Assembly (NCBI RefSeq): GCF_003418935.1
Contig: NZ_QVMT01000014.1
Coordinates: 27,143-91,142 of the forward strand
From: Emticicia sp. C21
GTDB taxonomy: Bacteria > Bacteroidota > Bacteroidia > Cytophagales > Spirosomataceae
Direction: 5' to 3'
DNA length: 64,000 nt
Shown: piece by piece, positions 4,055-39,218 of the stretch
Numbering within the stretch: position 1 is the first letter of the stretch
How the letters are laid out: each line of letters opens with the position of its first letter
Position numbers and translations under genes: made by a program
Notes under the pieces: model-generated
What the model was told of the DNA's origin: nothing
Database searches by the model: none
The model's input: the letters and a program-made list of their open reading frames with translations, nothing else

Positions 4055-4061
4055 CAGACAA

Positions 4062-11225: not shown

Positions 11226-11334
11226 TTAGTGATTGTTTTAATCGTGAATTATGAATGGCGAATCAGCGAATAATGTGGTGCAGATTTGCTTTTCAAATAT
11301 TTGCTAATTCGCTATTCACCATTCGCAATTACTC

Positions 11335-11841: not shown

Positions 11842-11923
11842 AGCGTTTGTGTAAATTTAATTTTCGTAAATTTATAGGATTGTTGCACTCGTTGAATAGC
11901 ATAAAGGCTATTTTAATGCACAT

Positions 11924-13570: not shown

Positions 13571-13632
13571 ACTTGAGTTTTAGTTTGTGATGCAAAGTAT
13601 AAAAATGCCTGTTGATTTATCAAACAATCAGT

Positions 13633-15054
13633 CTAATTTGTTGTCTTTGACAGGCTTATAATACCCTCTTCGTTTCTTATCACTTCTAACCCCAGTAATT
13701 GCAGATAACGATTCAGTAAATCGAAGAGAGATTCATTTCCTTTAATGCACACATCAAAATACCAGTCTAGTTTTTCGTTGGCTATTTCCTCACATATCAG
13801 CTGATAATCTTCCATTGTATAACCTTTAAAAGGTTTTCCGAATTGCTCCCACATCAGTTTCATTACATCATCTAAAGAGAGTGTATGGCTTGATACTTTT
13901 CTGATATGTAAATCCAGAATCTGTGCAGCAATTGCTCCTTTGTGATAAACAGATACTTTGCGGTCTGGTATACTCGGATTATAGCCATCCAGCCATAAAT
14001 CCCATGATGATTCAACAAGTGATTGAGACGCCTTATCGGCATGGTCAAAATGGCGTTTGAAACATGCTTCCAGTTCTTTTAGGTACTGAGTTTCATCAAA
14101 AACCTTTGAGCGGCTCAGCATCAAATCGCCATAATAGGTAGTTACTCCCTCAGCTACAAAGCAGGTCTGGAAATAATTTTCCTTAGTGAAATCGTAAGGT
14201 AAAAGCTCGATTGGACGGATCTTGCAGATATTCCAGGTATGGAAGAGTTCGTGAGATGCCAACCCTAATAAATCAATATATAATTCTTCAAAATTCTGAC
14301 TATCTGGACCTAAGACCTGCATCGTTGAACTTCTATGCTCTACCCCATGATAATAAGGGACAGGAAGTATCCATGTCAGAAAATGGTATTCTTTTTCAGG
14401 AAATTCTCCAAAAACATTGATTTGCTCTTGTGTGAATTTCTTGAAATCTGCTTTAATGCGCTTAAAATCGGGCTGAAAATTACCCTCAAACCAGAGATGG
14501 AACTTTACTTTACCAACCTTATAAAAATCGTGCTTAAGCGTAGGGCTTACAATAAATGGGCTATCTGCCAGATGATAAAAATCATCAAAATGAAGTAGAT
14601 GAGTGCCTTTTTCCTGAGAAGAACTGATATTGTTAATTCCGGCAATTTTCTCTTTTTCTCTTAAATGTAATTCAACAGTGCATGATTCATTAATTTTTCC
14701 TTCGGCATAGATACATAAGTTGACAGGGTTTACATAAAAAGTATGCTCATCTATATAGCTGCTTCCAGCATTGATGATTTGGGCAAAGTAATTATAACGA
14801 GCAACGATGCTCTTTGCCCCATGAGTCAATACTTCCCATCTGTCCTTGGCGATTTTTCGGGCTGATAATTTTTCTCCACTTTCATCAAAGACCTCGAAAG
14901 TCTGTATGTTTTTGGCAAAGTTCTGTAGCTCGTAGCGCCCCGGGCGCCAGGCCGGCAATTGTAATTCAACTTTATCACCGGTGAGATTATCGATAAAACA
15001 CTCTACATCAATAAAATGTGAGGTTCGTTCTTTAGAATAAATTTTATAATGCAT
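13633..15054 (-). CDS. M61-like zinc metallopeptidase (HExxH)
   Basis: 473 aa. The HELFHTWN zinc-binding motif is followed by a glutamate about 19 residues downstream, resembling the M61 / glycyl aminopeptidase family. No PDZ domain. Confidence 0.5.
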   Translation of the reverse strand: MHYKIYSKERTSHFIDVECFIDNLTGDKVELQLPAWRPGRYELQNFAKNIQTFEVFDESGEKLSARKIAKDRWEVLTHGAKSIVARYNYFAQIINAGSSYIDEHTFYVNPVNLCIYAEGKINESCTVELHLREKEKIAGINNISSSQEKGTHLLHFDDFYHLADSPFIVSPTLKHDFYKVGKVKFHLWFEGNFQPDFKRIKADFKKFTQEQINVFGEFPEKEYHFLTWILPVPYYHGVEHRSSTMQVLGPDSQNFEELYIDLLGLASHELFHTWNICKIRPIELLPYDFTKENYFQTCFVAEGVTTYYGDLMLSRSKVFDETQYLKELEACFKRHFDHADKASQSLVESSWDLWLDGYNPSIPDRKVSVYHKGAIAAQILDLHIRKVSSHTLSLDDVMKLMWEQFGKPFKGYTMEDYQLICEEIANEKLDWYFDVCIKGNESLFDLLNRYLQLLGLEVIRNEEGIISLSKTTN

Positions 15055-15167
15055 GAAACAATTTTTTGCCGCTGTGTTGGCTTTCTAAAAATTAATACGT
15101 ATTTTTGCAGTCCGTTATGAAAGGCACGGGTTATTTTGCATTAAAAGAACAAAAATAAATTAATATA

Positions 15168-15323
15168 ATGAAACGTACATTCCAACCATCAAACAGAAAG
15201 CGTCGTAACAAACACGGATTCCGTGAGCGTATGGAAACTGCAAATGGCAGACGCGTATTGGCTGCACGTCGTGCACGTGGCAGATGGAAATTGACTGTTT
15301 CTGACGAGAAAAAACACAAATAA
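15168..15323 (+). CDS. rpmH: 50S ribosomal protein L34
   Basis: 51-aa [25 protein letters not shown]...GRW that was not in the ORF track because it is under 60 aa. It sits immediately upstream of rnpA in the conserved linkage. Confidence 0.9.
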
Positions 15324-15443
15324 TCTCGTTTTTAGCAGTTTGATAGTTCAAAATTTACGATTTGTAAATGCGACATAATCAAGATATTGTAGCCACCATC
15401 TGGTGGCTTTTTTATTAGCTTTGTATGTGACTCAACTGAATGA

Positions 15444-15794
15444 TTGGTGAAAAAAACTTTCAAAAAAAACGAAAGACTGTGTAGTATAAAGGTAATAGAC
15501 AGCCTTTTTGACAGAAAAAATTCTGCCAACGAAGGTGCTTTTGCTTATCCAATCAGAGTTGTTGGTAAGCCATCAGATGAAGGAATTACACAAGTACTTT
15601 TTTCAGTACCTAAACGTCAGTTCAAACACGCCGTTGACCGAAACCAGATTCGCCGACGAATGAAAGAAGCTTATAGGCTAAATAAAGAACTACTCACAAA
15701 ACCCTACTATATTTCTTTTATTTATGTAGGCAAAGTGATAGAAAACTATGCTCAAATTGAAAAAGGGATGAAAAACTGCCTTAAAAAATTATAA
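15444..15794 (+). CDS. rnpA: ribonuclease P protein component
   Basis: 116-aa basic protein directly downstream of rpmH. The KNERL...FAYPIRVV segment is typical of Bacteroidetes RnpA. Confidence 0.8.
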   Translation: MVKKTFKKNERLCSIKVIDSLFDRKNSANEGAFAYPIRVVGKPSDEGITQVLFSVPKRQFKHAVDRNQIRRRMKEAYRLNKELLTKPYYISFIYVGKVIENYAQIEKGMKNCLKKL

Positions 15795-22662: not shown

Positions 22663-23961
22663 ATGGGCAAGCATATATCAAAACTTGAACGCCAGAAAAA
22701 TTTACAAGAAAAGCAGGCGCTCGAACAACAAATCAAAATAGCGCTTGAAAAAGCAGCTAAAATCAACGAGAGTTTTGTGGCAATTATCAATGAAGCTCTT
22801 GACCCAAGTCGAACAGACAATTATTGGAGTAATGCAAGATTTCGTTTTTTTATGGAATTTCTGGGTTATAACCAGAAGAGAAACAAGAAAGAAGTTTTTA
22901 AAAAATGGATTGAAAATTTAGTTTTTCTGACCGAAAAACTGGAGAGCAAAAATCCAAAGTGGTTTAAAGATACCTATTTTTTAGGTGCATTAATTCAGAT
23001 TTCCAAATACAGAAGTTTATGGATTCGTCCACTGGAGGAATGGAAACCAAAAACCAAAAGCGAGCACGAAAGATTTAAGGAATTAGTGGCTTTTTTATTT
23101 GCAGAATATCCTTTTCCAGCTTTTTTGAATTATATATTTTTTTATCAGGAAGATTTTTTCTTTATCCGTGATTTTATCTTTCTGGCACAAGGTGGTAGTA
23201 TCAAACATATGAATTCAAGCATTCCTCTAAGCCAAAAGATGAAAGTTGAATTTATGAGAAGCCCTGAAGGGTTTAGAGTATTTGAGGCTTTCAGACATGC
23301 ACAGGTATTGAGTTTGGGAGGAGATGAATTATTAGCTCATCGAATTGCCTACTCGTGGTTAGGTCGAAAAGAAAAGAGGGATGAACCCTTTTGGGAAAAA
23401 TTCATTCAAATCCTAATTGCAGGTGGAATGTTTAATTATGATAAAATTGGTGAATTAATAGACTATGTTCGCCATGAAATCAATGAAAATAAAGCCTATA
23501 CGCTAAAGGGCAGAACTTTAAACTCGCTTATCCGTCAGAGTGAGTTGTGGCATGAAGGCCTGACTTTCACCAAGGAACAAAGGATGGAAAAATTCGCAGT
23601 ATGGAAACCTCTATTTTCTGAATCTTTTGAGGTGATAGAGGGAGTTGGAGAAAAAGCCAATCAGTACAAAATGGTTGAGCTATTATCTAATAAAGAGTTG
23701 ATGGACGAAGGTAATAAAATGCATCATTGCGTTGCTACTTACAGCTCTTATTGCTCAAAAGGAAGAACCAGAATTGTATCATTACGAAAATACCAGTGTG
23801 GATTTGAAATGGAAAGACAGGCCACTATAGAAGTAAATCTGGCAAGTGGGAGAGTGGTGCAGGCAAAATATCGCTACAATAAGCCAATTAGCGAAAAAGC
23901 ACAGAGTTTATTAACCCAATGGGTTGATGCTCAAGGATTTAGAATAGATAAGTATTTATAA
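22663..23961 (+). CDS. PcfJ-like domain protein
   Basis: 432 aa. The C-terminal region (LMDEGNKMHHCVATYSSYCSKGRTRIVSLR) resembles the conserved EG..M.HCV..Y core of the PcfJ-like family, as I recall it. Assigned from memory of the motif only. Confidence 0.45.
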   Translation: MGKHISKLERQKNLQEKQALEQQIKIALEKAAKINESFVAIINEALDPSRTDNYWSNARFRFFMEFLGYNQKRNKKEVFKKWIENLVFLTEKLESKNPKWFKDTYFLGALIQISKYRSLWIRPLEEWKPKTKSEHERFKELVAFLFAEYPFPAFLNYIFFYQEDFFFIRDFIFLAQGGSIKHMNSSIPLSQKMKVEFMRSPEGFRVFEAFRHAQVLSLGGDELLAHRIAYSWLGRKEKRDEPFWEKFIQILIAGGMFNYDKIGELIDYVRHEINENKAYTLKGRTLNSLIRQSELWHEGLTFTKEQRMEKFAVWKPLFSESFEVIEGVGEKANQYKMVELLSNKELMDEGNKMHHCVATYSSYCSKGRTRIVSLRKYQCGFEMERQATIEVNLASGRVVQAKYRYNKPISEKAQSLLTQWVDAQGFRIDKYL

Positions 23962-23979
23962 GATTATTAAAATAAAACA

Positions 23980-24996
23980 ATGAGAAAATTAGCGAGTATT
24001 CAAAGAATTATCGCACTGGAGCCAATTGAGGGTGCCGATAATATCTTGAAAGCTAAAGTTCTGGGTTGGGAGCTTGTGACTAAAAAAGATGAATTTGCTG
24101 TAGGAGATTTGTGTATCTATTGCGAGGTCGACAGTTTGCTCCCGGATAAGCCAGAATTTGAGTTTTTGAAGTCAAAAAGTTTTCGTATCAAAACTATCAG
24201 GCTTCGTGGGCAAATCTCACAAGGAATTTGTTTCCCTTTGAGTTTCCTACCAGAAAATTTTGAAATCGAAGAGGGAGCAGATTGTACAGACGTATTGGGT
24301 ATTATCAAATATGAACCACAAATCCCTGCGAATCTGGTTGGTATAATGAAAGGAGGTTTTCCTTCATTTATTCCTAAAACTGATGAAACCAGGGTACAGA
24401 TTTTACAAAATGTATTGGCAAAATATAAGGGTGAAGCCTGCTATATTGCCGAAAAACTGGATGGTAGCTCAGCAACTTATTATATCAGAGATGGTGTATT
24501 CGGGGTATGTTCAAGGAATCTTGAAATTGAAGAGGACAACGAAAATACCTACTGGAAAGTGGCCAAAGTATTGAATATTGAGGAAAAGCTGAGGTCTTTG
24601 AATGGTAATTATGCTTTGCAGGGCGAGCTGGTAGGGGAGGGTGTTCAGTACAATAAGATGAAAATGAAGGGAAATACTGTATTCTTTTTCAACCTTTTTA
24701 AGATTGATACTTTTGAGTACGTTTCTTATGCCGATTTTATGCAACTGATGAAAGCACTGGAATTGCCAACTGTACCAGTATTGAATGATAACTTTATCTT
24801 GCCGAACAGCATTACCGACTTGGTGGAGATGTCAAAGATTAAGTCAACCATTCAACCGGCAATGTGGGCTGAGGGTATCGTCATCAGGCTTCTGAATGAG
24901 AAACTGGATAAAACTCTTTTGAGAGATTTGGGCGGACACGGACGGATTTCATTTAAGGTAATTAATCCGGAATTTTTGTTGAAATTTAACGAATAA
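23980..24996 (+). CDS. ATP-dependent RNA ligase, DRB0094/DraRnl-like (Rnl5-type)
   Basis: 338 aa. The N-terminal segment (KLASIQRIIALEPIEGADNILKAKVLGWELVTKK.EFAVGDL) matches the DraRnl N-terminal OB-like module. A KxDG adenylation motif follows (AEKLDGSS). Confidence 0.65.
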   Translation: MRKLASIQRIIALEPIEGADNILKAKVLGWELVTKKDEFAVGDLCIYCEVDSLLPDKPEFEFLKSKSFRIKTIRLRGQISQGICFPLSFLPENFEIEEGADCTDVLGIIKYEPQIPANLVGIMKGGFPSFIPKTDETRVQILQNVLAKYKGEACYIAEKLDGSSATYYIRDGVFGVCSRNLEIEEDNENTYWKVAKVLNIEEKLRSLNGNYALQGELVGEGVQYNKMKMKGNTVFFFNLFKIDTFEYVSYADFMQLMKALELPTVPVLNDNFILPNSITDLVEMSKIKSTIQPAMWAEGIVIRLLNEKLDKTLLRDLGGHGRISFKVINPEFLLKFNE

Positions 24997-25015
24997 CCAT
25001 TTTAATATTACCCAT

Positions 25016-25684
25016 ATGAACTATCAGATTATCAGGGACGAAAAGCTTTTTCTCAACTTTATTGACTGGTTGCCGGAGCTTAAAAGAAATGAGACCTATT
25101 ATGTATCATTATTGGCTCGCAGCAAGTATCATCAGGCAGTAGGAAGCGATAAAGCTCAGGTAAAGCGATTCACAGCTACCAAAGATTTTCTCTTTGATAA
25201 GGTGAAACAACTGGAATGTGAATTGGGTACGTATAAATATAAGGGTGTAGGTATTCCGCAAGAGGCTTTGGCACTATATATCAGCCTGAATCCACGTGAT
25301 ATGGAGAAGGCCTGCAAGAGCGCTTTAATACGATTTGCTGAACTGATTACCAAAGAATATAACGGGTATAACCCACATCAGGAAGTATTATCAGAGATAC
25401 AGAAGTCGTGTACCAGGAAGGTATATTTTGACCTTGATTTCGATAAAGTAGATATTACAGAAACTTTAACAGAGATTAAGAACTATATCAACGAAGATTG
25501 TCTGACAGTATTGAGAACCCGGGGTGGCTTTCATTTATTGGTTGAATTATCCAGAATTGAAAAGCAATACACCAAAACCTGGCATCAATCGCTAGCTAAA
25601 ATAGAAGGTTGTGATGTGAAAGGAGATAATCTGATACCTTTGCCAGGATGCACACAAGGTGATTTTACACCACATTTTATGTAG
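25016..25684 (+). CDS. hypothetical protein (RNA-repair island)
   Basis: 222 aa with no P-loop or 2H motifs. Immediately follows the RNA ligase on the same strand. Confidence 0.45.
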   Translation: MNYQIIRDEKLFLNFIDWLPELKRNETYYVSLLARSKYHQAVGSDKAQVKRFTATKDFLFDKVKQLECELGTYKYKGVGIPQEALALYISLNPRDMEKACKSALIRFAELITKEYNGYNPHQEVLSEIQKSCTRKVYFDLDFDKVDITETLTEIKNYINEDCLTVLRTRGGFHLLVELSRIEKQYTKTWHQSLAKIEGCDVKGDNLIPLPGCTQGDFTPHFM

Positions 25685-25689
25685 CAGTT

Positions 25690-26335
25690 CTATTAAATCA
25701 ACACAATACGCATGGAGAATTGCAGGAGTTGCTTGATGCTCCTGCTCCATGCAAACAACAAAAAGATAGCCTGAATGGACGAGGAGCTTGTCTTGAAAGC
25801 AAGTAATATTGAAAGGTGTTATAGGTTCGATTCCTATTGCCTCCGCAAAAATTAATAAGTAATACCGAGAGGTTTTTGGGCGGTCGCCGCGCGATTCGAT
25901 TCCTATTGCCTCTGCAAAATTAAATGAGCATGTACTCCAATCGGAAGAGAGAGCTGTCTCAGAAGCAGTTTAGTATTGGTTCGAATCCAATCATGCTTAC
26001 TAAATTCTAGCTTTTATAGCTGAATTTGTAAAAAAATAGGGAAAATAGTCCGTAAGTGGAAGCGGGGCGGTCTGTAAAACCGTTGCATTGTGCCTTGCAT
26101 GCGGCCGCCGCGCGGTTCGATTCATGCTTTTCCCACTATGGAGTTGATGAATCAGGGTAATTGCAATATTGCCGCAATTACCCTAGCTGCGACAGATTAT
26201 GCAGTTTGATTCATAATTTTTCAGTAAAAATAATAGAGAGTAAATCCTGCTGGGCAGGGCACTGCCTGCTACGCAGTTGGTTCATACATGAATGAAGTTC
26301 GAGTCTTCTGCTCTCTGCTGAGTGATGATTGTATT
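25690..26335 (+). ncRNA. cluster of degenerate tRNA-like / Y-RNA-like fragments (T-arm-containing remnants and stable hairpins)
   Basis: T-arm motifs: ATAGG-TTCGATT-CCTAT (25818-25834), a degenerate copy (~25893), ATTGG-TTCGAAT-CCAAT (~25975), GTTCGATTC (~26115) and GAAG-TTCGAGT-CTTC (~26296). A 14-bp interrupted hairpin lies at 25711-25753. A Tyr-like unit has a GGGAAAA/TTTTCCC acceptor. None of these folds as a full canonical tRNA. Confidence 0.4.
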
Positions 26336-26337
26336 AT

Positions 26338-26410
26338 GGAAAAATAGCCGAGTTGGTCAAGGCGTTAGTCTGAAACACTAAAGATGTAAGTTCGAATCTT
26401 ACTTTTTCCA
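26338..26410 (+). tRNA. tRNA-Phe-like (anticodon GAA), atypical all-A/T acceptor stem, CCA encoded
   Basis: Folds as GGAAAAA-TA-GCC(G)...D-loop GG...anticodon stem TTAGT/ACTAA, loop CTGAAAC, T-arm GTAAG-TTCGAAT-CTTAC, acceptor 3' TTTTTCC, then A and CCA. The D-stem has only 3 bp. Confidence 0.5.
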
Positions 26411-26505
26411 CCAAAAATTATGAGAAAGTATATAAAATGCTCTGGTTTGAAACGCAAACAACATAAACAGAGCACCATTTAATAAATGTTTTGCTGACTA
26501 AAAAA

Positions 26506-26576
26506 TACTGGATCGTTTAGAGGAAAGATATAACGATACGAACGTTAAGACCAAGGTTCGACTCCTTGTCCGGTAA
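26506..26576 (+). ncRNA. tRNA-like element (Arg-type ACG anticodon arm, irregular D-arm)
   Basis: Acceptor TACTGGA/TCCGGTA; perfect anticodon arm TAACG-ATACGAA-CGTTA; perfect T-arm CAAGG-TTCGACT-CCTTG. The D region does not form a canonical stem. Confidence 0.4.
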
Positions 26577-26622
26577 CAAATAAGTAAAAAGCTATTATAT
26601 TGATTGTTTAAATAAACGTAAA

Positions 26623-27129
26623 ATGATACTTGCAGTAGATGTTTTTTATAAACAGAGTAGCGCTAAAATAGTAGGATTGATTTTTAATGATTGGAATGAT
26701 GCCAAATATGCCCAGAAAATTGAAAAGTTTAGAAACGATATAGCCGATTATGAGCCAGGGGCATTCTATAAACGAGAGTTGCCATGTATTATGGATATTC
26801 TCACAGACCTGGATCTGACACAACTGAAGTATATAATAGTAGATGGCTATGTATTTCTGGATGATGATGGGAAACCTGGACTAGGGGCGCATTTATATGA
26901 AGCACTACCAATAAAGGTTCCGATAATAGGTGTAGCTAAGACTTCTTTTGCCAACAATAAAAAGTACGTGGCGGAGGTATTTAGGGGCATAAGCCAGAAA
27001 CCATTGTTTATTACTGCCATAGGAGAGGATTTAACAAATGCTGCCGCTATGGTACACAGCATGTCTGGAGAATATCGCTTTCCGACTATGCTAAAAGAGC
27101 TGGACGACTTCACAAAAGTGATACGGTAG
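26623..27129 (+). CDS. nfi: endonuclease V-like protein (divergent)
   Basis: 168 aa. Conserved EndoV blocks are present with E. coli-like spacing: A-VDV (catalytic Asp), YEPGAFYKRE (the FRE block), IVDGYV (the VDG block), and PIIGVAKTSF (the GVAK block). The His-Pro-Arg block after the VDG motif is replaced. Confidence 0.55.
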   Translation: MILAVDVFYKQSSAKIVGLIFNDWNDAKYAQKIEKFRNDIADYEPGAFYKRELPCIMDILTDLDLTQLKYIIVDGYVFLDDDGKPGLGAHLYEALPIKVPIIGVAKTSFANNKKYVAEVFRGISQKPLFITAIGEDLTNAAAMVHSMSGEYRFPTMLKELDDFTKVIR

Positions 27130-27302
27130 TAACAGAATAAAAGTTTTTGGAAAATATTTTCAGTTGCAAATATTTGACTATCAGATGTTTGTCGTAATGC
27201 TAAGAGAATATTTTTTACTACGCAAAAAGACTGCGTAGGTGGTGTGAACTTTTGTAGCATCAAATTGATAATTAAGTTCTTTAATAATGATAAAAAGAAG
27301 TG

Positions 27303-27440
27303 CCGTAGAACAGAGTTACTTCGCTTTAGGAGCCGTGTGTCATTGGTTCGAATCCAATCTGCCTGACTAAATAAGTCATTCAGGCAGTAGCTCAGTCCGG
27401 TAGAGCAACGTAAAAGGCTCTTTTCGCTCTTTGCCTTCTT
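27303..27440 (+). ncRNA. circularly permuted tRNA-like module 1 (candidate YrlA-type Y RNA)
   Basis: Order along the strand: T-arm ATTGG-TTCGAAT-CCAAT (27342-27358); closed acceptor hairpin CTGCCTGA-13nt-TCAGGCAG (27359-27387); TA; D-arm GCTC-AGTCCGGTA-GAGC (27390-27406). The flanking helix GGAGCC (27329-34) / GGCTCT (27416-21) covaries with module 2. Confidence 0.45.
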
Positions 27441-27445
27441 TAAAA

Positions 27446-27521
27446 TCTGGGTGTTATGCAAATGGTTATACAACGGTGTTTTGGAGACATCGGTTCGCTG
27501 GTTCGAATCCAGCTACCCAGA
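27446..27521 (+). ncRNA. tRNA-like element (Pro-type TGG anticodon loop, irregular core)
   Basis: 7-bp acceptor TCTGGGT/ACCCAGA; D-arm TATG-CAAATGGT-TATA; anticodon arm GGTGT-TTTGGAG-ACATC; T-arm GCTGG-TTCGAAT-CCAGC. There are 4 extra nt between the D and anticodon stems. Confidence 0.4.
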
Positions 27522-27693
27522 CTATCAAGTGTCGTAGAGAAGTCATACCTCGTTCCAAGGGTTGAGATATAGGTAGTTACCGCAAGATACAAGTCCTATC
27601 TGCAAAGAATTGCAGTGGTCGATATTAAGACGCAACCGTGCTCATGAAAGATGAGCCCATAGCAGACTGCTCGCTTGTTACCTTGATTATTTC

Positions 27694-27783
27694 GCTCGGT
27701 TGGGCAAATTGGTTAAGCCGCCACTCTTTCACAGTGGAGATTACGGGTTCAACCGCGGTGGCGGACCACCCCCGTACCGAGTA
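27694..27783 (+). pseudogene. tRNA-Glu-like (TTC) element with a 16-nt hairpin insertion in the T-loop
   Basis: Acceptor GCTCGGT/ACCGAGT; 3-bp D-stem GGC/GCC; perfect anticodon arm CCACT-CTTTCAC-AGTGG; T-stem ACGGG/CCCGT enclosing a 23-nt loop that contains hairpin CCGC-GGTG-GCGG. Confidence 0.4.
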
Positions 27784-27814
27784 CATGAAGTTTTAAAATT
27801 TAACAGTTAATGCA

Positions 27815-28129
27815 ATGAAAAATGATGTTATCAGATATTTCTTGGTAAACTCTGAAGAGACCGGAAGACATATTGTCACTTCTTTCCGCACAGGCAGAAA
27901 ATATTATATTGAGCCTATCGGTAATGGAAGAATGGCAGATTGGGGAAGTTATAATCCAGGTACGGGTAATATAGAAAATAAGAAAGGAGCAGGAAAGCAC
28001 ACAGGCTCTGTTATGGCCGAAGATTCTGTAATTACACCAGAAAACGGATTCGTGAATATTCATTTGATTGAAAGCGGAAGTCCTTATTCAATCATTGATG
28101 AAATGGATGCAAAACATCCGAGTATATAA
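27815..28129 (+). CDS. hypothetical protein (within tRNA-like array)
   Basis: 104-aa ORF between tRNA-like modules with no recognisable motif. Whether it is really coding is uncertain. Confidence 0.3.
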   Translation: MKNDVIRYFLVNSEETGRHIVTSFRTGRKYYIEPIGNGRMADWGSYNPGTGNIENKKGAGKHTGSVMAEDSVITPENGFVNIHLIESGSPYSIIDEMDAKHPSI

Positions 28130-28142
28130 ATTAAAAATAAGC

Positions 28143-28275
28143 AAGTGTCGTAGACAAGAGATACTTCGCATTGATAACGCAGAGGTCGCACGTTCGAGTC
28201 GTGCATAGATTTCGGTCTATTAGCTCAGGTGGTTAGAGCACTTAAAAGCCTCTTTTCGCTATTTACCTTGCTTAT
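28143..28275 (+). ncRNA. circularly permuted tRNA-like module 2 (candidate YrlA-type Y RNA)
   Basis: T-arm GCACG-TTCGAGT-CGTGC (28188-28204); acceptor hairpin ATAGAT-TTCG-GTCTAT (28205-28220); TA; D-arm GCTC-AGGTGGTTA-GAGC (28223-28239). Flanking helix AGAGGT (28181-86) / GCCTCT (28248-53). Confidence 0.45.
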
Positions 28276-28284
28276 TTTTAAAAT

Positions 28285-28357
28285 GTTGCGATTAGTGTAG
28301 TGGTTTACACGAGGGCTTGTGGAGCCGTTAAGATGAGTTCGAATCTCATATCGCAAC
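28285..28357 (+). tRNA. tRNA-His (anticodon GTG) with encoded G-1 and C73
   Basis: G-1 at 28285; acceptor TTGCGAT/ATCGCAA; D-arm GTGT-AGTGGTTT-ACAC; anticodon loop TTGTGGA; T-arm ATGAG-TTCGAAT-CTCAT; discriminator C. There is one G-G mismatch in the anticodon stem. Confidence 0.7.
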
Positions 28358-28549
28358 CAATCAAATGCCATTGAATGGCTTTGGTTAATTACCCGATTAG
28401 GCAAATGCTGTGACTAAGCTGTGACTAATGCCTAATCAGGGTACAATGAGGTGCCGTAAAAAAGTGATACTTCGCTTGGTGACCAGAAGAAATTCTGGAA
28501 GGTTCGAATCCTTAAACACACTTTTTGCTTTTTGCCCTCATTTTAAGAT

Positions 28550-28622
28550 TACCTCATAGCTCAGTCGGTAGAGCAGCACCCTGTTAAGGTGATGGCCGTT
28601 GGTTCAACCCCAATTGAGGTAG
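28550..28622 (+). tRNA. tRNA-Asn (anticodon GTT)
   Basis: Acceptor TACCTCA/TGAGGTA; TA-GCTC-AGTCGGTA-GAGC; anticodon loop CTGTTAA; T-arm GTTGG-TTCAACC-CCAAT; discriminator G. Confidence 0.8.
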
Positions 28623-28649
28623 CATTTTTAGTCAATGCTGTGATTATAC

Positions 28650-28722
28650 AATCGGATCGTCTAATTGGTAAAGACATCGGGATTTGGCCCCGAAGATTGA
28701 GGTTCAAGTCCTTATCTGATTA
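28650..28722 (+). tRNA. tRNA-Gln (anticodon TTG)
   Basis: Acceptor AATCGGA/TCTGATT; D-arm GTCT-AATTGGTAA-AGAC; anticodon arm TCGGG-ATTTGGC-CCCGA; T-arm TGAGG-TTCAAGT-CCTTA. Confidence 0.8.
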
Positions 28723-28739
28723 CTGAATAGTTTATTTAT

Positions 28740-28813
28740 TACTTTGTAACTCAGTTGGTTAGAGTACCATCCTTTTAAGATGGGAGTCGTCAGTTCGAGC
28801 CTGACCAGAGTAA
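28740..28813 (+). tRNA. tRNA-Lys (anticodon TTT)
   Basis: Acceptor TACTTTG/CAGAGTA; TA-ACTC-AGTTGGTTA-GAGT; anticodon arm CCATC-CTTTTAA-GATGG; T-arm GTCAG-TTCGAGC-CTGAC. Confidence 0.8.
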
Positions 28814-28886
28814 CATCAGGTGCCGTGGATAAGGGTTACTTCGTCTCTAAAACTCTGTTGACTCTTATCGCTTATTGCCCTGAAAT

Positions 28887-28958
28887 GGTCTGATAACTCA
28901 GTGGTAGAGTTGTTTTCTGATACGAAACAGGTCGAAGGTTCGAATCCTTCTCAGACTA
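28887..28958 (+). tRNA. tRNA-Ile (anticodon GAT)
   Basis: Acceptor GGTCTGA/TCAGACT; TA-ACTC-AGTGGTA-GAGT; anticodon arm GTTTT-CTGATAC-GAAAC; T-arm GAAGG-TTCGAAT-CCTTC. Confidence 0.8.
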
Positions 28959-28978
28959 CAATGATTATTTGTTTTTAC

Positions 28979-29051
28979 TACTCTGTAGCTCAGTTGGAAG
29001 AGCGTCATCCTTCTAAGATGAGGGTAATTGGTTCGAATCCAATCAGGGTAA
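28979..29051 (+). tRNA. tRNA-Arg (anticodon TCT)
   Basis: Acceptor TACTCTG/CAGGGTA; TA-GCTC-AGTTGGAA-GAGC; anticodon arm TCATC-CTTCTAA-GATGA; T-arm ATTGG-TTCGAAT-CCAAT. Confidence 0.8.
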
Positions 29052-29187
29052 CATCAAGTGCCGTAGAGAAGAGTTACTTCGTCCGCTAATAGGGGAGGAA
29101 TAGCGAAGTTGTAAAATCAGCAAGACTATCCAGTTCGATTCTGGCTTTGACATGCCCCGTCACTCTTTTCGATTTTTGCCTTGAATT

Positions 29188-29259
29188 GGTTTGATAGCTC
29201 AATGGTAGAGCGGTTCTCTCATAAGGAACAGGCCGATAGTTCGATTCTATCTCAGACTA
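29188..29259 (+). tRNA. tRNA-Met/fMet-type (anticodon CAT)
   Basis: Acceptor GGTTTGA/TCAGACT; TA-GCTC-AATGGTA-GAGC; anticodon arm GTTCT-CTCATAA-GGAAC; T-arm GATAG-TTCGATT-CTATC. Could alternatively be the lysidine-modified Ile2 type. Confidence 0.75.
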
Positions 29260-29333
29260 CAAGTTTGGTGCATCAAATACTTCCTCTCAGAACGGTTCTG
29301 AGATGGCGTTATTCAAACAAAATTTTTTCAACC

Positions 29334-30854
29334 ATGAAATTCAATATTTTGAATCGTGAGAAAAATACAGTTATCAATCACGCAGGAGCTAAAGCTTATA
29401 CACTTACTCCAGCTATGGAACTATACACCAGCGTGGTAACGAGTATCCTGTCAGATACTTTCTATGAAAAGGCTGATGATCGTCTGGCTCGTATTCAGGC
29501 GCTCATCCGTAAAAACGATGCCCAATTTGTAGCAAAACTGGCTGTATATGCCCGTGAAAAAATGTACCTGCGTTCAATCCCTTTGGTATTGCTGACAGAG
29601 CTGGCGCAAACCCATAAAGGTGATAATCTGGTAAGCCGTACGGTTGGCCGTGTGATTCAGCGTGCTGACGAAATTACCGAATTGCTGGCTTGCTACCAGA
29701 TGGCTAACCAGCGTAAAGAAACCAAAAAACTGAACCGTTTGTCAAAACAGATTCAGAAAGGTCTGGCTGAGGCTTTCAATAAATTTGATGAATACCAGTT
29801 CAGCAAATACAACCGTACAGGTACTGATGTAAAACTGCGTGATGCCTTGTTTCTGGTTCACCCAAAGGCAAAAAATGAAGCACAGCAAGTCATTTTTAAC
29901 AAAATTGCTAAAGATGAACTGGTTACAGCTCAAACCTGGGAAACTACTTTGTCAGCCGTGGGTCAGAATGATTTTGATTCAGAAACTCATAAACTGGAAG
30001 CAAAATCACAGGCATGGGAGCAACTGATTCTTAATGGAAAACTAGGATACATGGCTATGCTGCGTAACCTGCGTAACATTATTGAAGCGAACGTAAGCCA
30101 GGAGGCTATCGAAAAAGTATGTGCTACTTTGAGCAATGCTCGTGCAGTAGCTAATGCTAAACAATTTCCTTTCCGTTTCTTGTCAGCTTACCGAGGGGTA
30201 AAGCATCTGCAAAACGGACGGGTAAGCAATATTCTGACTGCTTTAGAAACGGCCGTTCAGCATTCGGCGAATAATATCCGTGGTTTCGATGCTCGTACGC
30301 GTGTAGTAATTGCTGCCGACGTATCAGGTTCAATGCAACGGGCAATTTCTCCAAAAAGTACTGTTCAGAACTTTGATATCGGTTTGATGTTGGCCATGTT
30401 GCTGCAAAACCGTTGCGAGGATGTAGTAACAGGTATGTTTGGAGATACGTGGAAAATCATTAGCGTGCCAAAAAACAATATTCTGGCAAACGTATTGGAG
30501 TTCCATCGTCGTGAGGGGGAGGTAGGTTATTCAACCAACGGACATCTGGTAATTCAGGATTTGATTAACCGAAGAAAAAAAGTTGATAAAATCATGATTT
30601 TTACCGACTGTCAACTTTGGAACAGTAATGGTGGAAGCCCGATTGCTCAGGCATGGGCCGAATACAAAAAAATAGCACCAAATGCTCGTTTGTATTTGTT
30701 TGACTTGGCTGGATACGGAAATACTCCAGTTAATACAGTTAACGAGGGTTCTGTATTTCTGATGGCCGGATGGTCAGATAAAATTTTTGACATTCTTACA
30801 GCTATTGAAGAAGGAAGCAATGCAATTGCTGAAATCAATAAAATTGAAATTTAG
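29334..30854 (+). CDS. rsr: Ro60-related protein (Rsr; TROVE domain + vWA/MIDAS)
   Basis: The vWA MIDAS motif DVSGSM and the Ro60-like blocks KQFPFRFLSAY, LRDALFLVHPKA and IMIFTDCQLWN align with metazoan Ro60 (RIHPFHILVAL / LLRLSHIKP / IFIVFTDCETN). The start was moved to the ATG at 29334 (MKFNILNREK) because the upstream part of track ORF 29181 overlaps tRNA-Met. Confidence 0.85.
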   Translation: MKFNILNREKNTVINHAGAKAYTLTPAMELYTSVVTSILSDTFYEKADDRLARIQALIRKNDAQFVAKLAVYAREKMYLRSIPLVLLTELAQTHKGDNLVSRTVGRVIQRADEITELLACYQMANQRKETKKLNRLSKQIQKGLAEAFNKFDEYQFSKYNRTGTDVKLRDALFLVHPKAKNEAQQVIFNKIAKDELVTAQTWETTLSAVGQNDFDSETHKLEAKSQAWEQLILNGKLGYMAMLRNLRNIIEANVSQEAIEKVCATLSNARAVANAKQFPFRFLSAYRGVKHLQNGRVSNILTALETAVQHSANNIRGFDARTRVVIAADVSGSMQRAISPKSTVQNFDIGLMLAMLLQNRCEDVVTGMFGDTWKIISVPKNNILANVLEFHRREGEVGYSTNGHLVIQDLINRRKKVDKIMIFTDCQLWNSNGGSPIAQAWAEYKKIAPNARLYLFDLAGYGNTPVNTVNEGSVFLMAGWSDKIFDILTAIEEGSNAIAEINKIEI

Positions 30855-30907
30855 TTTAGGGTTAGAATCACTTTCCGGGTCTGGTTTCCGGACCTGGAAA
30901 TTTAAAT

Positions 30908-30979
30908 GGAACATTGGTGAAATGGTTATCATCCTACCCTGTCACGGTAGAATCATGGGTTCGATTCCCATATGTTCCG
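30908..30979 (+). tRNA. tRNA-Asp (anticodon GTC)
   Basis: Acceptor GGAACAT/ATGTTCC; TG-GTGA-AATGGTTA-TCAT; anticodon arm CTACC-CTGTCAC-GGTAG; T-arm ATGGG-TTCGATT-CCCAT; discriminator G. Confidence 0.8.
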
Positions 30980-31112
30980 CGATAGAAACGTAGTTGAACC
31001 TGATGAGGGTTTCATTAAGGCCCCATAGTATTGGAGCAATTGCTTTCAATATGCTGTCAATGAGGGTTCTGTTAATTTATGTAGGTTCGAATCCTGCCAA
31101 GCTAATAAATAT

Positions 31113-31155
31113 GGGCTTGTCGTGTAATGGTTAACACAATGGACTTCCACTCCAT
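31113..31155 (+). pseudogene. 5' fragment of a tRNA-Gly-like (TCC) gene lacking a T-arm
   Basis: GGGCTTG-TC-GTGT-AATGGTTA-ACAC-A-ATGGA-CTTCCAC-TCCAT: acceptor 5' strand, perfect D-arm and anticodon arm. No TTCGA T-arm follows. Confidence 0.4.
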
Positions 31156-31453
31156 AATTTAGAAAACAAGTAAATCAGTCTGAAACTATTCGGGTGTTTT
31201 TACCTTCGCAAAAACACAGTTCAGTACAGACTTGCAAAGAGGAGGATACCGATAGATAGAGGTGATTGCTTCAATGCTGGCGACTACATATATTATAGGG
31301 TGGCTGTCTCGTGGTTACGAGAGACAAACAATTTAGAATTATAGACTAGCCCAAGGCTATTGAACCGATTATCGAAGTCCGTCTTAATCTGATTTCCGTT
31401 TCAATGAATCGGATAGTGTAAGACTGATTTTTAACAAAGTAATTATTAAAATC

Positions 31454-32548
31454 ATGAAAAATATACAAGTAAATGCCAATCAGGTAGCATTGGTTTTGAA
31501 AAATAAGGCTTTCAAGCGATTGCTTGGTGAGGGTTCTTATTGGTTTTGGGGAAATGAAGAAGTTTTTATATATGAGAAAGGAAATGCCTTTGCTGCTCCC
31601 GTTGAACTAAACGTGCTATTGCAACATCCTGAAATCACAGAGGCCTTGGATGTCATAGAGGTAAAAGATAATGAAATGATGGTTCAGTTTGAAGACAATC
31701 GCTTCAAAACTGTCTTTGGTCCGGGTAAATACGCTTTCTGGCGCGGTATTAAAAACTATACTTATACGGCTATTGATTTAAACAAAATCGAGATTACTGA
31801 AGATTTTAGCCCACAGCTAATCAGCACTAAATTATTGTCGTATGTGAGAAGTTATACTGTAGAGTCTTACGAAAAAGGAGTTTTGATTGTTGATGGTAAA
31901 TTTGTACGTGTGTTAGACGGAGGTACTTATTACTGGTGGAAAAATACCATCAGCATTCAGGTAGCTAAAGCGGATATGCGTCAATTGCAAATGGAGATTT
32001 CAGGACAGGAGATTCTGACGAAAGATAAAGCCAGCTTGCGTTTAAATGCCTTTGTGCAATATCGTATCACCGATATTGTGAAAGCGATGTATGAAAACAA
32101 AGACTACGAAAAACAAGTATATGTTGTATTGCAATTGGCTTTAAGAGAGTATATTGGTGGATTAACTTTGGACGAATTGCTGGATAAAAAAGATAGTATT
32201 GTGGATTTTGTATTGAAAAATACTGCCGACAAATTGGTAGGTTTGGGTATTGAAATCAAAGGCTGTGGTATCCGTGATATTATTTTACCCGGAGACATGA
32301 AAGATATCATGAATCAGGTATTGATGGCTGAGAAAAAAGCACAGGCCAATATCATTATGCCTAGGGAAGAAACCGCTTCTATGCGTAGCTTGTTGAACAC
32401 TGCCAAATTGATGGAAGAAAATGAAACCTTGTGGAAATTGAAAGAGATGGAATATGTAGAGAAAATCGCGGATAAAATCAATACTATTTCAGTTTCAGGC
32501 AATGGACAGATTCTCGACCAATTGAAGCAAATTTTTGTAAAAAATTAA
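31454..32548 (+). CDS. SPFH/band-7 domain protein with ~170-aa N-terminal extension
   Basis: The C-terminal half (QEILTKDKASLRLNAFVQYRITD...KGCGIRDIILPGDMKDIMNQVLMAEKKAQANII) is a typical SPFH/band-7 core. Confidence 0.7.
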   Translation: MKNIQVNANQVALVLKNKAFKRLLGEGSYWFWGNEEVFIYEKGNAFAAPVELNVLLQHPEITEALDVIEVKDNEMMVQFEDNRFKTVFGPGKYAFWRGIKNYTYTAIDLNKIEITEDFSPQLISTKLLSYVRSYTVESYEKGVLIVDGKFVRVLDGGTYYWWKNTISIQVAKADMRQLQMEISGQEILTKDKASLRLNAFVQYRITDIVKAMYENKDYEKQVYVVLQLALREYIGGLTLDELLDKKDSIVDFVLKNTADKLVGLGIEIKGCGIRDIILPGDMKDIMNQVLMAEKKAQANIIMPREETASMRSLLNTAKLMEENETLWKLKEMEYVEKIADKINTISVSGNGQILDQLKQIFVKN

Positions 32549-32555
32549 AAATAGG

Positions 32556-32583
32556 GTAGGGGTTGAAAATTTTCAACCCCTAC
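32556..32583 (+). promoter_or_regulatory. perfect 28-nt palindrome between the SPFH gene and rtcB
   Basis: GTAGGGGTTGAAAA|TTTTCAACCCCTAC. Forms a 12-bp stem with a 4-nt loop as RNA. There is no downstream T-tract. Confidence 0.4.
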
Positions 32584-32597
32584 ATAAAATACTTTAA

Positions 32598-34124
32598 ATG
32601 GAAACAACGATTTCATTAGAAGAAATATTAGCATTAGGGAATATACCAGAAAACCTGCAAGGTAGTTTCCTGAGAATAGCTAACGGATTGCATCAAAAGG
32701 CTGAATATCCAAAAGAAAAGGTATTAAGAATGTTTGCTGAAATGTTGGCTAGCCCAAAGAAATTTGCCTATTCAAAAAATAAGGTAACTAACCTGGCAAA
32801 AGAGATTTTTGACCTAGAAAAGAAAGGGATGAAAGTCGAGCTTTCAGAAGAAGGCAAGACTTATTTACCTGCTGAGTCGCCTGTGTATGAGATGGAGGAA
32901 AAAGAAAAGCAAAAAACAGTTGCTTTTGATTTAAGAACATCTCCATTGCCATATCAGATTTACGGCGCTGAATATATCGAAGAGGGCGCATTGAAGCAAA
33001 TGGAAACTGCTTTGAGTTTGCCTGTGGCTGTAGCAGGTGCTTTAATGCCTGATGCCCATCAAGGCTATGGGCTACCTATCGGTGGTGTATTAGCTACGAC
33101 CAATAATACGGTTATTCCGTTTGCGGTCGAAGTAGACATTGCCTGCCGGATGTGTTTGTCAATTTTTGATATTCCAGGTGATTTTTTCAAACGTCAGCCG
33201 CATTTGCTGAAACGTGCTTTAGTAGAGAATACCAAGTTTGGTATGGGTGGAGAAACGGCTCACAAGTTTGATGAAAGTGTCATGGATAAAGCAGAATGGA
33301 CAGCCACAAAAATCATTCGTGATTTGAAAGATAAAGCTTATCGACAATTAGGTACCTCAGGTACTGGAAACCACTTTGTAGAGTGGGGTATTGTAGAGGT
33401 ATTTTCAGCTGATGATTTGCTGGCAGTACCTAAAGGCGAATATCTGGCGCTCCTATCTCATTCGGGTTCAAGAGGTTTTGGTGGGGCAGTAGCTAATCAT
33501 TATTCAAAAGTAGCTATGAAGAAAACCAAATTGCCAAAAGAGGCAGCTCATCTGGCATGGTTGGATATGAATACCGAAGAAGGGCAGGAGTATTGGATTG
33601 CTATGAATCTGGCAGGAGATTATGCTTCGGCCAATCACCACGAAATTCATAAGAAGATTGCTAAAATGTTGGGTGAACAACCTATAAAAATGGTTGAAAA
33701 TCACCACAATTTTGCCTGGAAAGAAAATTTGGCTGATGGTACAGAAGTAATTGTACATAGAAAAGGAGCAACACCTGCCAATCGCAATGACTTAGGGATT
33801 ATTCCTGGCTCTATGACTGACCCAGGCTTTATCGTTCGTGGTAAAGGTATAAGCGAATCATTAAATTCAGCTTCACATGGCGCAGGTCGTTTGATGTCGA
33901 GAACTAAAGCACTTAATTCTATAACTAATAGTGCCTTGAAAAAAGTATTAGAAGAAAAAGGAGTACAACTGATAGGTGGAGATTTAGATGAAGCACCAAT
34001 GGTTTATAAGAATATTGAAACGGTAATTGCTTCGCAAACCGATCTCGTAGAGATTTTGGCTAAGTTTAGCCCAAAGATTGTAAGGATGGCAGATGCCAAT
34101 CGCAAAGAAGGACGAGAGGATTGA
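32598..34124 (+). CDS. rtcB: RNA-splicing ligase RtcB family, with ~100-aa N-terminal extension
   Basis: RtcB hallmarks are present: MPDAHQGYGLPIGGV, DIACRMC, ENHHNFAWKE...VHRKGATPA and SHGAGR. Confidence 0.85.
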   Translation: METTISLEEILALGNIPENLQGSFLRIANGLHQKAEYPKEKVLRMFAEMLASPKKFAYSKNKVTNLAKEIFDLEKKGMKVELSEEGKTYLPAESPVYEMEEKEKQKTVAFDLRTSPLPYQIYGAEYIEEGALKQMETALSLPVAVAGALMPDAHQGYGLPIGGVLATTNNTVIPFAVEVDIACRMCLSIFDIPGDFFKRQPHLLKRALVENTKFGMGGETAHKFDESVMDKAEWTATKIIRDLKDKAYRQLGTSGTGNHFVEWGIVEVFSADDLLAVPKGEYLALLSHSGSRGFGGAVANHYSKVAMKKTKLPKEAAHLAWLDMNTEEGQEYWIAMNLAGDYASANHHEIHKKIAKMLGEQPIKMVENHHNFAWKENLADGTEVIVHRKGATPANRNDLGIIPGSMTDPGFIVRGKGISESLNSASHGAGRLMSRTKALNSITNSALKKVLEEKGVQLIGGDLDEAPMVYKNIETVIASQTDLVEILAKFSPKIVRMADANRKEGRED

Positions 34125-39075: not shown

Positions 39076-39149
39076 GGCTGCGTAGCTCAACTGAATAGAG
39101 CGTCTCACTACGGATGAGAAGGTTAGGGGTTTGAATCCCTTCGCGGTCA
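39076..39149 (+). tRNA. tRNA-Arg (anticodon ACG)
   Basis: Acceptor GGCTGCG/CGCGGTC; TA-GCTC-AACTGAATA-GAGC; anticodon arm TCTCA-CTACGGA-TGAGA; T-arm AGGGG-TTTGAAT-CCCTT; discriminator A. Confidence 0.85.
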
Positions 39150-39218
39150 CAAAAAGTTCAAAAACCCTTCAAATAGCGCTATTTGAAGGGTTTTTTGTTT
39201 TATGGTGATACCGTTTTT
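39134..39218 (+). repeat. left copy of an ~85-bp direct repeat (tRNA-Arg 3' end + terminator)
   Basis: About 94% identical to 43142-43226. The left copy is part of the intact tRNA. Confidence 0.7.
39163..39196 (+). terminator. rho-independent terminator after tRNA-Arg
   Basis: Perfect 13-bp palindromic stem CCCTTCAAATAGC/GCTATTTGAAGGG followed by T6. Confidence 0.75.

Follow-up and report, generated by a model that had tools for sequence, protein, structure and literature searches.

A compact endonuclease V homologue in an RNA-repair island of Emticicia sp. C21 and in the tRNA arrays of huge phages

Gene, fold and active site of the compact endonuclease V

The stretch of DNA analysed here (64,000 nucleotides, positions 27,143 to 91,142 of contig NZ_QVMT01000014.1 of Emticicia sp. 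C21; hereafter the window) contains an island of tRNA and RNA-repair genes at 22663–34124, in which every gene and tRNA lies on the + strand. Within this island, an open reading frame (ORF; 26623..27129, +) with an ATG start encodes a compact, 168-residue protein of the endonuclease V (EndoV) family, hereafter the window EndoV. The gene starts 46 nt past the end of a tRNA-Arg(ACG) gene (26506..26577, +; called by ARAGORN and by the Rfam tRNA model at 47.4 bits), which is one of 13 ARAGORN tRNAs in 25926–30980, all on the + strand, and 205 nt 3′ of its stop codon begins the first of two YrlA-like tRNA-mimic modules (27334..27412, +). An ATP-dependent RNA ligase (23980..24996, +) is encoded upstream and an RtcB RNA ligase (32598..34124, +) downstream, and a preliminary description of the sequence was thus right in placing the gene inside an RNA array and next to RNA ligases.

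The assignment to EndoV made in that description was borne out by profile and structure comparisons. Pfam PF04493 (Endonuclease_5) matched residues 2–114 of the window EndoV with 35.3 bits (E = 1.2e-8; profile positions 20–131 of 198), i.e., above its gathering cut-off (GA) of 23.4 bits, and scored 21.6–47.1 bits with the compact EndoVs of viruses. The NCBIfam equivalog for nfi/deoxyribonuclease V (NF008629) gave 24.8 bits, far under its 230-bit cut-off. A search with the single sequence found one solved EndoV, weakly (3goc, E = 0.016). A family profile built from 42 aligned bacterial members (profile A1) recovered 3goc at E = 8.5e-7 as well as the EndoVs of mouse and human (E about 1e-4), and was aligned by hhalign with E. 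coli Nfi (sequence taken from NC_000913.3) over 162 columns with 95% probability (E = 3e-8).

The AlphaFold2 (AF2) model made on profile A1 is confident and compact, with a mean predicted local distance difference test score (pLDDT) of 95.2 and a predicted template modelling score (pTM) of 0.90. When it was compared with the PDB via Foldseek, matches 1–34 were all EndoV structures (E 2e-9 to 1e-6; query-normalised template modelling score (TMq) 0.70–0.81), covering mouse, T. maritima, E. coli, human, B. subtilis and Ciona with the first three at the top, so that the predicted fold is that of EndoV. Thus neither of the two results named in the preliminary description as refuting the assignment, a missing Endonuclease_5 match or an unrelated fold, was obtained. 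Next in rank were the archaeal DUF99 protein 2QH9 and then Argonaute PIWI domains. DUF99, or Endo_dU (PF01949; A. fulgidus 2QH9), has a small (~175-residue) EndoV-like fold as well and is reported to cleave DNA 3′ of the deaminated base dU (PMC11585767). It is nevertheless a weaker match (TMq 0.58–0.60): the window EndoV has no PF01949 match at E ≤ 1 (one viral compact EndoV gives a faint, partial match of 18 bits) and is clearly nearer to EndoV by both sequence and structure. Searches of PHROGs v4 yielded no meaningful match for the window EndoV and none for the viral copies, PADLOC had no match for either, and in BFVD an EndoV was found from a giant virus only, none being present in the phage part.

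Like Nfi (E. coli 4XPU; T. maritima 2W35 and 3HD0), the window EndoV combines an RNase-H-like fold with an Asp/Glu/Asp triad, the Lys of a GVAK motif and a C-terminal residue at the Asp/His position. More specifically, D6, E52 and D74 correspond to the catalytic residues D35, E82 and D103 of E. coli, K106 and D161 to the phosphate-holding K132 and D206 (H214 in T. maritima), and Y43 to Y73, the wedge residue that separates the strands. In T. maritima EndoV, D43, E89 and D110 are metal ligands and K139 and H214 hold the scissile phosphate; these residue roles have been established previously, as have the PYIP wedge and the hypoxanthine pocket with its four glycines (PMC4650699, PMC3025561). The catalytic blocks are spaced by 46/22/32 residues vs. 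47/21/29 in E. coli, close to the spacings of about 47, 21 and 31 read in the preliminary description. Among the 42 aligned bacterial sequences, D6, Y43, E52, K106 and D161 do not vary and D74 is present in at least 90%, and all six are conserved in 36 of the 36 bacterial and viral members tabulated.

The wedge Tyr is followed by Pro-Gly, as in Nfi. The wedge motif reads D42-Y43-E44-P45-G46 in the window; across the clade its Tyr and Gly are invariant and its Pro is kept in most members and replaced by Ser in some, whereas the first Pro and the Ile of PYIP are not conserved. Three of the four pocket glycines (G76, G104, G106 and G114 in E. coli) are retained as G46, G75 and G86, and the hydrophobic pocket positions are filled by F48 and L87. 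Val77 takes the place of the fourth glycine, G106 of E. coli and G113 of T. maritima, and this position is Val or another non-Gly residue clade-wide. Moreover, the H109-P110-R111 of motif IV aligns to D81-D82-G83 (clade consensus DDxGK), in keeping with the earlier remark that the His-Pro-Arg block is replaced. Also unlike Nfi, the window EndoV lacks the ~29 N-terminal residues, including the N-terminal helix, and a segment of ~17 residues following GVAK, and it is 55 residues shorter overall (168 vs. 223). In T. maritima EndoV, H116 and R118 of motif IV serve inosine-DNA binding, H116 substitutions weaken this binding, and G113V leads to low activity (PMC3025561).

Taken together, the retained catalytic residues and the changes in motif IV, the pocket glycine and the deleted segments show that the catalytic half of the enzyme is intact and that its lesion- and DNA-binding half has been rebuilt. 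With a dN/dS of 0.055–0.10 among island-embedded EndoV copies, the window gene is maintained by selection; its product is folded, belongs to a compact (~167-residue) EndoV clade and is very probably an active EndoV-family nuclease. The epithet "divergent" used in the preliminary description needs some qualification: the protein is no peculiarity of one lineage but typical of a large compact clade, members of which NCBI and JGI already list as endonuclease V. Since the window protein itself carries the annotation "endonuclease V", its homology is known and not new.

Distribution and gene neighbourhoods

A protein database search with the window EndoV returned 3,350 homologues, the nearest of which are "endonuclease V" proteins of Emticicia fontis, E. 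agri and E. soli (82–91% identity), while the remaining ones have 165–175 residues and come chiefly from Bacteroidota. In a space of 1.84 billion cluster representatives at 50% identity, profile A1 matched 555, 1,269 and 1,887 clusters at E ≤ 1e-30, 1e-10 and 1e-3, respectively. When one genome was scanned for each species, at least 578 compact EndoV loci came to light, spread patchily over taxa that include Paenibacillus, Cohnella, Gilliamella, Limnobaculum, Glaciecola, and metagenome-assembled genomes (MAGs) of Campylobacter and Veillonellaceae.

Compact EndoV genes were also found in 39 IMG/VR loci, on contigs of mostly 100–550 kb, and in Lak megaphages. In 13 of these 39 loci, 3 to 28 tRNAs lie within 10 kb of EndoV. 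The 13 loci represent about 10 lineages, with EndoVs mostly 30–50% identical to each other and a GC content of 0.34–0.62, so that EndoV lies inside or beside large tRNA arrays in about 10 of some 18 divergent huge-phage lineages. The closest tRNA is 9 to 123 nt from EndoV in six loci (L091, L093, L094, L118, L120 and L124), and in L115 a methionyl-tRNA synthetase (MetRS) gene (8613–10004) overlaps the start of EndoV (10001–10504) by 4 nt. If tRNA clusters fill no more than ~10% of such genomes (an assumed figure), the association of EndoV with arrays would be far above chance. The MetRS–EndoV pair of L115 has tRNAs on both sides and an EF-G-like gene nearby.

The bacterial context was sampled as the 80 closest genome loci, with 10 kb around EndoV, and an array or RNA-repair context was found in three lineages, i.e., Emticicia, L004/L006 and Flavobacterium L051/L083. 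In L004/L006 (EndoV with 65–69% identity), tRNA-Ser, two or three tRNA-Leu, tRNA-Arg(ACG) and a homologue of orf104, a small gene also present in the window island (see below), precede EndoV in this order, and L006 has a tRNA-His downstream of EndoV. The possibility that L004/L006 represent an unrelated housekeeping context was ruled out by this five-tRNA array and the orf104 homologue right upstream. The distance from tRNA-Arg(ACG) to EndoV is here ~650–720 nt; direct adjacency of the two was considered as a rule for the family and rejected, since it is seen only in the window and E. fontis, and not in E. soli or most phages.

In Flavobacterium piscinae L051 and the Flavobacterium MAG L083, the order is orf104, YrlA-like RNA, Band 7 gene, RNase_T-family exonuclease gene and EndoV, with six tRNAs upstream of orf104 in L051. 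The Band 7 proteins of these two modules are 53–58% identical to that of the window. The exonuclease directly 5′ of EndoV is of the 3′–5′ DEDDh type (L051 9305–9871; L083 2869–3417). Two large ORFs with no assigned function (336 and 321 residues) lie upstream of the L051 module (2429–4828), and an AAA-type-ATPase-like ORF with a Walker-A motif, then an 844-residue ORF, lie downstream of it (11171–15545).

The Emticicia island itself is flanked by clpP on one side and a NUDIX gene on the other, and its synteny is kept in E. fontis and E. soli while its tRNA content varies. All of its features listed here are on the + strand. Its first gene (22663..23961) encodes a PcfJ-like protein (PF14284, E = 4e-15) that is 56–62% identical among Emticicia species vs. 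81–97% for the neighbouring genes, and which therefore evolves unusually fast. Next come the ATP-dependent RNA ligase, of the DRB0094 type with a PHA02142 OB domain (PF21189, PF09414, TIGR02306 at 179.8 bits vs. a cut-off of 151, and phrog_968 RNA ligase), and a 222-residue protein (25016..25684) with a weak phrog_14949 match and no match in Pfam or NCBIfam, which is 86–92% identical in L001, L008 and L010. E. fontis (L001) has one more ORF (9001–9789), weakly matching RimK/ATP-grasp, between the 222-residue gene and EndoV. In the window, tRNA-Leu(CAG) (25926–26000; ARAGORN, Rfam), a weak Rfam tRNA-like match (26039–26135) and tRNA-Phe(GAA) (26338–26413; ARAGORN, Rfam) precede the tRNA-Arg(ACG) gene and EndoV.

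Downstream of EndoV, the first YrlA-like module matches Rfam RF02553 at model positions 23–87 (38.8 bits, E = 5e-6), and a T-loop GGTTCGAATCC is readable in it. It is followed by a weak tRNA-Pro(UGG) (27447–27522; ARAGORN, and Rfam at 30.3 bits vs. a GA of 29), a weak tRNA-Glu(UUC) (27694–27767; ARAGORN, and Rfam at a sub-threshold 24 bits), the conserved small-protein gene orf104 (27815..28129) and, just after it, the second YrlA-like module (28180..28245; RF02553, 39.5 bits, E = 3e-6). The remainder of the island comprises seven tRNAs for His, Asn, Gln, Lys, Ile, Arg(UCU) and Met (28286..29260; ARAGORN, Rfam), a Ro60/TROVE-vWA RNA-binding protein (29325..30854; PF05731, PF25045 and phrog_850 at E = 1.8e-58), tRNA-Asp(GUC) as the last tRNA of the array (30908..30980; ARAGORN, Rfam), an SPFH/Band 7 protein (31454..32548; PF01145) and, as the last gene, RtcB (PF01139, E = 1.2e-81). 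The short contig L010 retains the ligase, the 222-residue gene, EndoV, Band 7 and four tRNAs, and the interval from EndoV to Band 7 shows no TROVE match. None of eight island proteins matched any defence-system model of PADLOC-DB 2.0 at E ≤ 0.01, and scans for sigma-70 promoters and terminators gave nothing above shuffled expectation, with a consensus that may not suit Bacteroidota.

The orf104 product (~105 residues) has 126 homologues, none of which carries a Pfam domain, and its window and viral copies have no PHROGs or PADLOC match. Its AF2 model (pLDDT 79) found no match in a PDB fold search, so that it has no recognisable fold. The tRNA arrays in which the gene occurs are those of bacterial islands and of jumbo and crAss-like phages (L004 9601–9924; L051 6718–7041; L091 3996–4385; L129 10001–10324; L130 10001–10420). 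It adjoins EndoV in L004/L006 and is part of the same module as EndoV in L051, L083 and L091, the two genes being found together in four lineages; the jumbo-phage tRNA arrays of L129 and L130 contain orf104 and not compact EndoV.

Directly 3′ of orf104 in the window, L051 and L083, there is always one YrlA-like element, which in L051 (7366–7482) matches the full-length RF02553 model with 48.9 bits and in L083 lies at 975–1074. Across the elements of the window, L051 and L083, the scores range from 31 to 49 bits vs. a GA of 69 bits, below which both window matches fall as well, and the elements are probably divergent tRNA-mimic Y RNAs. The L083 element, called "tRNA-Pro(AGG)" by ARAGORN, is more likely such a Y-RNA-like mimic and was left out of the count of A34 tRNAs. 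In L051, no TROVE match is present within 10 kb.

The compact clade is an accessory, horizontally mobile gene. On a 40-kb plasmid of Moraxella osloensis (NZ_CP014238.1; L132), it stands beside a Tn3-family transposase gene; EndoV and a gene for a 250-residue hypothetical protein directly follow recombinase-family and Tn3-family transposase genes there (3439–8507) and may be transposon cargo. Further copies are found on Vibrio megaplasmids of ~0.9 Mb and, in Deinococcus, Fulvitalea and Burkholderia, on replicons recorded as plasmids, and no tRNAs lie near EndoV in the plasmid loci checked.

Possible substrates and competing explanations

By the established chemistry of the EndoV family, the compact enzyme would require Mg2+, take up a flipped deaminated purine (hypoxanthine) in its remodelled pocket and cut the second phosphodiester 3′ of the flipped base, leaving 3′-OH and 5′-phosphate ends. 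To judge only by the gene neighbourhoods, its preferred substrate would be RNA both in the Emticicia island and in many of the huge phages. The likeliest such RNA would be an inosine-bearing tRNA, i.e., tRNA-Arg(ICG) with its I34, or a tRNA deaminated adventitiously or by an attacker. Together with the array tRNAs, the ligase, Ro60 with its Y-RNA-like RNAs and RtcB, compact EndoV might thus form part of a toolkit for tRNA turnover, replacement or repair. Since 3′-OH/5′-phosphate ends fit an ATP-dependent ligase and are not joined by RtcB, the EndoV nick would chemically suit the former and not the latter.

Eukaryotic ENDOV (human 4NSP; mouse 6OZ* RNA complexes) is an inosine-specific ribonuclease and is among the best structural matches of the window EndoV (E ~2e-9, TMq 0.72–0.78). 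Both E. coli and human EndoV cleave inosine-containing tRNA-Arg(ACG) anticodon-loop RNA, tRNA-Arg(ACG) being the only I34-carrying tRNA species in E. coli, and the human enzyme also cleaves native I34 tRNAs in vitro, which is the activity proposed here for the window EndoV (PMC3741635). Unlike the compact clade, whose RNA preference is putative, eukaryotic ENDOV is larger (~250-residue catalytic domain with extra helices) and keeps motif IV.

The recurrent link with tRNAs in phage and bacterial lineages makes an RNA or tRNA role of compact EndoV plausible. We tentatively favour the reading in which it is an inosine-reading nuclease acting on RNA or tRNA in the island and in many huge phages. 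That RNA or tRNA is the physiological target in the window island is, by our estimate, a little short of an even chance, and that the target is specifically I34 appears doubtful. An RNA-directed role had been suggested in the preliminary description from the position of the gene; this suggestion gains indirect support from the recurrence of the clade in tRNA arrays of divergent huge phages and in three bacterial lineages. The particular scheme offered there, I34 cleavage with repair by the adjacent ligases, is conjectural: adjacency to tRNA-Arg(ACG) is not general, most bacterial members have no RNA context, and of the two ligases just the ATP-dependent one would fit the EndoV ends.

Several observations weigh against an RNA-directed, inosine-reading enzyme. 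About 70 of the 80 closest bacterial loci have no tRNAs or island genes within 10 kb, their neighbours being miscellaneous, and some eight viral lineages have EndoV without nearby tRNAs. In the arrays, the closest tRNA varies by lineage (Arg(ACG), His, Thr, Glu, Phe, Ser, Trp, Gly or Leu), and several arrays show no A34 tRNA within 10 kb, so that nothing points to I34 specifically. HNH and GIY-YIG homing endonucleases crowd the same phage tRNA arrays, and because these arrays are hot spots for unrelated accessory nucleases, co-location alone is weak evidence. In addition, constitutive cleavage of its own tRNA-Arg(ICG) would harm the cell, and no regulator was identified. Finally, Val77 and the absent His could signal an altogether different substrate, because G113V and H116 substitutions impair T. 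maritima EndoV.

The first alternative is an ordinary DNA-repair enzyme, i.e., a deoxyinosine 3′ endonuclease that is a streamlined Nfi and whose location in arrays is a by-product of insertion hot spots. Databases name the clade throughout as endonuclease V or deoxyribonuclease V, most bacterial members stand alone in unrelated neighbourhoods (as in Chryseolinea, Paenibacillus and typical Flavobacterium copies), homing endonucleases occupy the arrays too, and the gene immediately upstream in Flavobacterium L051/L083 encodes the RNase_T-family exonuclease, all of which would agree with such a role. It is less easily reconciled with residence in the arrays of about 10 viral and three bacterial lineages despite differing flanking tRNAs and mostly just 30–50% identity among the viral EndoVs concerned, or with the MetRS gene overlap in one copy. 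The inosine-DNA-binding motif (T. maritima His116/Arg118) is lost, the score against the nfi equivalog is a fraction of its cut-off, and the patchy plasmid and phage distribution is unlike that of a housekeeping repair gene. We consider an ordinary DNA-repair role rather unlikely.

A second alternative is an enzyme that cleans up after conflicts, nicking deaminated DNA or RNA for removal and acting with SUKH-type immunity proteins against secreted nucleic-acid deaminase toxins or phage or host deaminases, with the tRNA-array context as one special case. An SMI1_KNR4/SUKH-1 domain is fused N-terminal to compact EndoV in two proteins (P0327 and P0372), and in eight Paenibacillus and Cohnella loci (L003, L022, L028, L033, L035, L042, L055 and L060; at ~10530–11550) a SUKH gene begins within a few tens of nt past the EndoV stop, the two forming a conserved gene pair. 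SUKH proteins are predicted to give immunity to toxins that are nucleases or deaminases, and no fewer than four clades of deaminase toxins are linked to SUKH (PMC3113570, PMC3239186). This pairing, like the mobile, accessory distribution of the clade, suggests a link with deamination in inter-bacterial conflict. In contrast, no toxin gene lies beside the EndoV–SUKH pairs examined, the SUKH/SMI1_KNR4 family is broad, there is no PADLOC match, and residence in phage tRNA arrays is not explained by this role in itself, which makes it unlikely as the general function. The two SUKH papers were also considered as sources on EndoV and set aside, as their text matches read "EndoVII" and neither mentions EndoV.

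Third, compact EndoV might have lost inosine recognition and act as a base-independent, structure-specific nuclease, either in processing the polycistronic array transcript or as a selfish homing-type nickase of the array. Rebuilt motif IV, the replacement of one pocket Gly by Val and the presence of homing endonucleases in the same arrays would fit, but the strict conservation of the wedge Tyr with its Pro-Gly, of all pocket glycines but one and of the hydrophobic pocket residues argues that a flipped base is still read, and most family members lie far from tRNA arrays; we regard this as improbable. The degenerate, non-catalytic nucleic-acid binder envisaged in the preliminary description, to which the 55 missing residues and the lost His-Pro-Arg might point, is barely credible given that every catalytic residue is invariant over the compared bacterial and viral members, that the AF2 model is confident and compact, and that the low dN/dS excludes a decaying protein.

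A stronger form of the favoured RNA-directed reading, which we think somewhat unlikely, is that the compact clade is an endonuclease dedicated to tRNA, which recognises inosine or further deaminated bases and travels with tRNA arrays both in huge phages and in bacterial RNA-repair islands. If so, I34-bearing or deaminated tRNAs might be selectively destroyed, while the array supplied replacements and the ATP-dependent ligase resealed 3′-OH/5′-phosphate nicks. This would amount to a new metal-dependent class of anticodon nuclease in tRNA-centred phage–host and inter-bacterial conflicts, and to a natural RNA function for a bacterial-type EndoV.

Related systems and further observations

Functionally, there is an analogy with PrrC and T4 Pnkp/Rnl1, with RloC and with colicins D and E5, in which site-specific cleavage of tRNA anticodon loops is coupled to RNA ligases and replacement tRNAs. 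Nucleases of the PrrC, RloC and colicin type are metal-independent and leave 2′,3′-cyclic phosphate and 5′-OH ends. The likeness to these pairs of anticodon nuclease and repair is one of function only, as EndoV chemistry yields 3′-OH and 5′-phosphate ends and there is no sequence or fold relationship.

With the Salmonella rsr-yrlBA-rtcBA locus, the island shares Ro60/TROVE, putative Y-RNA-like tRNA mimics and RtcB in one co-oriented cluster, TROVE and RtcB being clear and the YrlA matches (38.8 and 39.5 bits) sub-threshold. With the RNA-repair modules of jumbo phages, it shares phage-type RNA ligases and tRNA arrays (PMC7824862, PMC4201824). Unlike in the island, no EndoV-family member was found described in rsr–Y RNA–rtcB loci or in the jumbo-phage modules in the literature searched; the only "endonuclease V" in the jumbo-phage review is the unrelated T4 DenV glycosylase (PMC7824862). 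Compared with Nfi, the compact clade also differs in being accessory, mobile and often located in tRNA arrays. In the literature searched, we found no description of the compact architecture as a distinct clade or of its loss of motif IV, nor of EndoV residing in huge-phage tRNA arrays or RNA-repair islands or being linked to SUKH.

The biological role of EndoV ribonuclease activity is unresolved in the field, and mouse EndoV knock-outs are reported to show no clear RNA phenotype (PMC7192598). A minimal natural EndoV that is repeatedly placed among tRNA, aminoacyl-tRNA synthetase and RNA-repair genes offers a tractable test of action on tRNA in vivo, and the finding is of interest because it provides a concrete system for asking what EndoV does to RNA. 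The clade is labelled "DNA repair" automatically, although the canonical inosine-DNA-binding motif is missing. If active, the 167-residue enzyme would be among the smallest inosine-reading nucleases, with a possible use in inosine mapping. Moreover, compact EndoV and the orf104 family, both uncharacterised, add to the genes catalogued as residents of tRNA arrays in huge phages.

With regard to the arrays themselves, the window has two tRNA-Arg(ACG) genes. The array copy next to EndoV is AT-rich (43% GC), with U1-A72 as its first pair and the loop A32-U33-A34-C35-G36-A37-A38, and the other (39076–39150), outside the array, has 53% GC and a C32/G37 anticodon loop. Weak tRNA-like matches (24–29 bits) occur in the window at 25766–25838, 26039–26135, 27701–27759 and 31115–31172; in E. 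fontis L001, intact genes for tRNA-Ser, tRNA-Tyr and additional tRNA-Asp stand at these positions. There are 17 tRNAs in L001, against 13 for the window and 5 for E. soli. The weak matches suggest decaying array members and a rapid turnover. Among the viruses, a group of ~13 near-identical IMG/VR loci (L095–L113; GC 0.36) carries an 80-nt tRNA-like gene at ~8040–8120, ~1.9 kb upstream of EndoV, for which a four-base anticodon (atta or tttt) is called.

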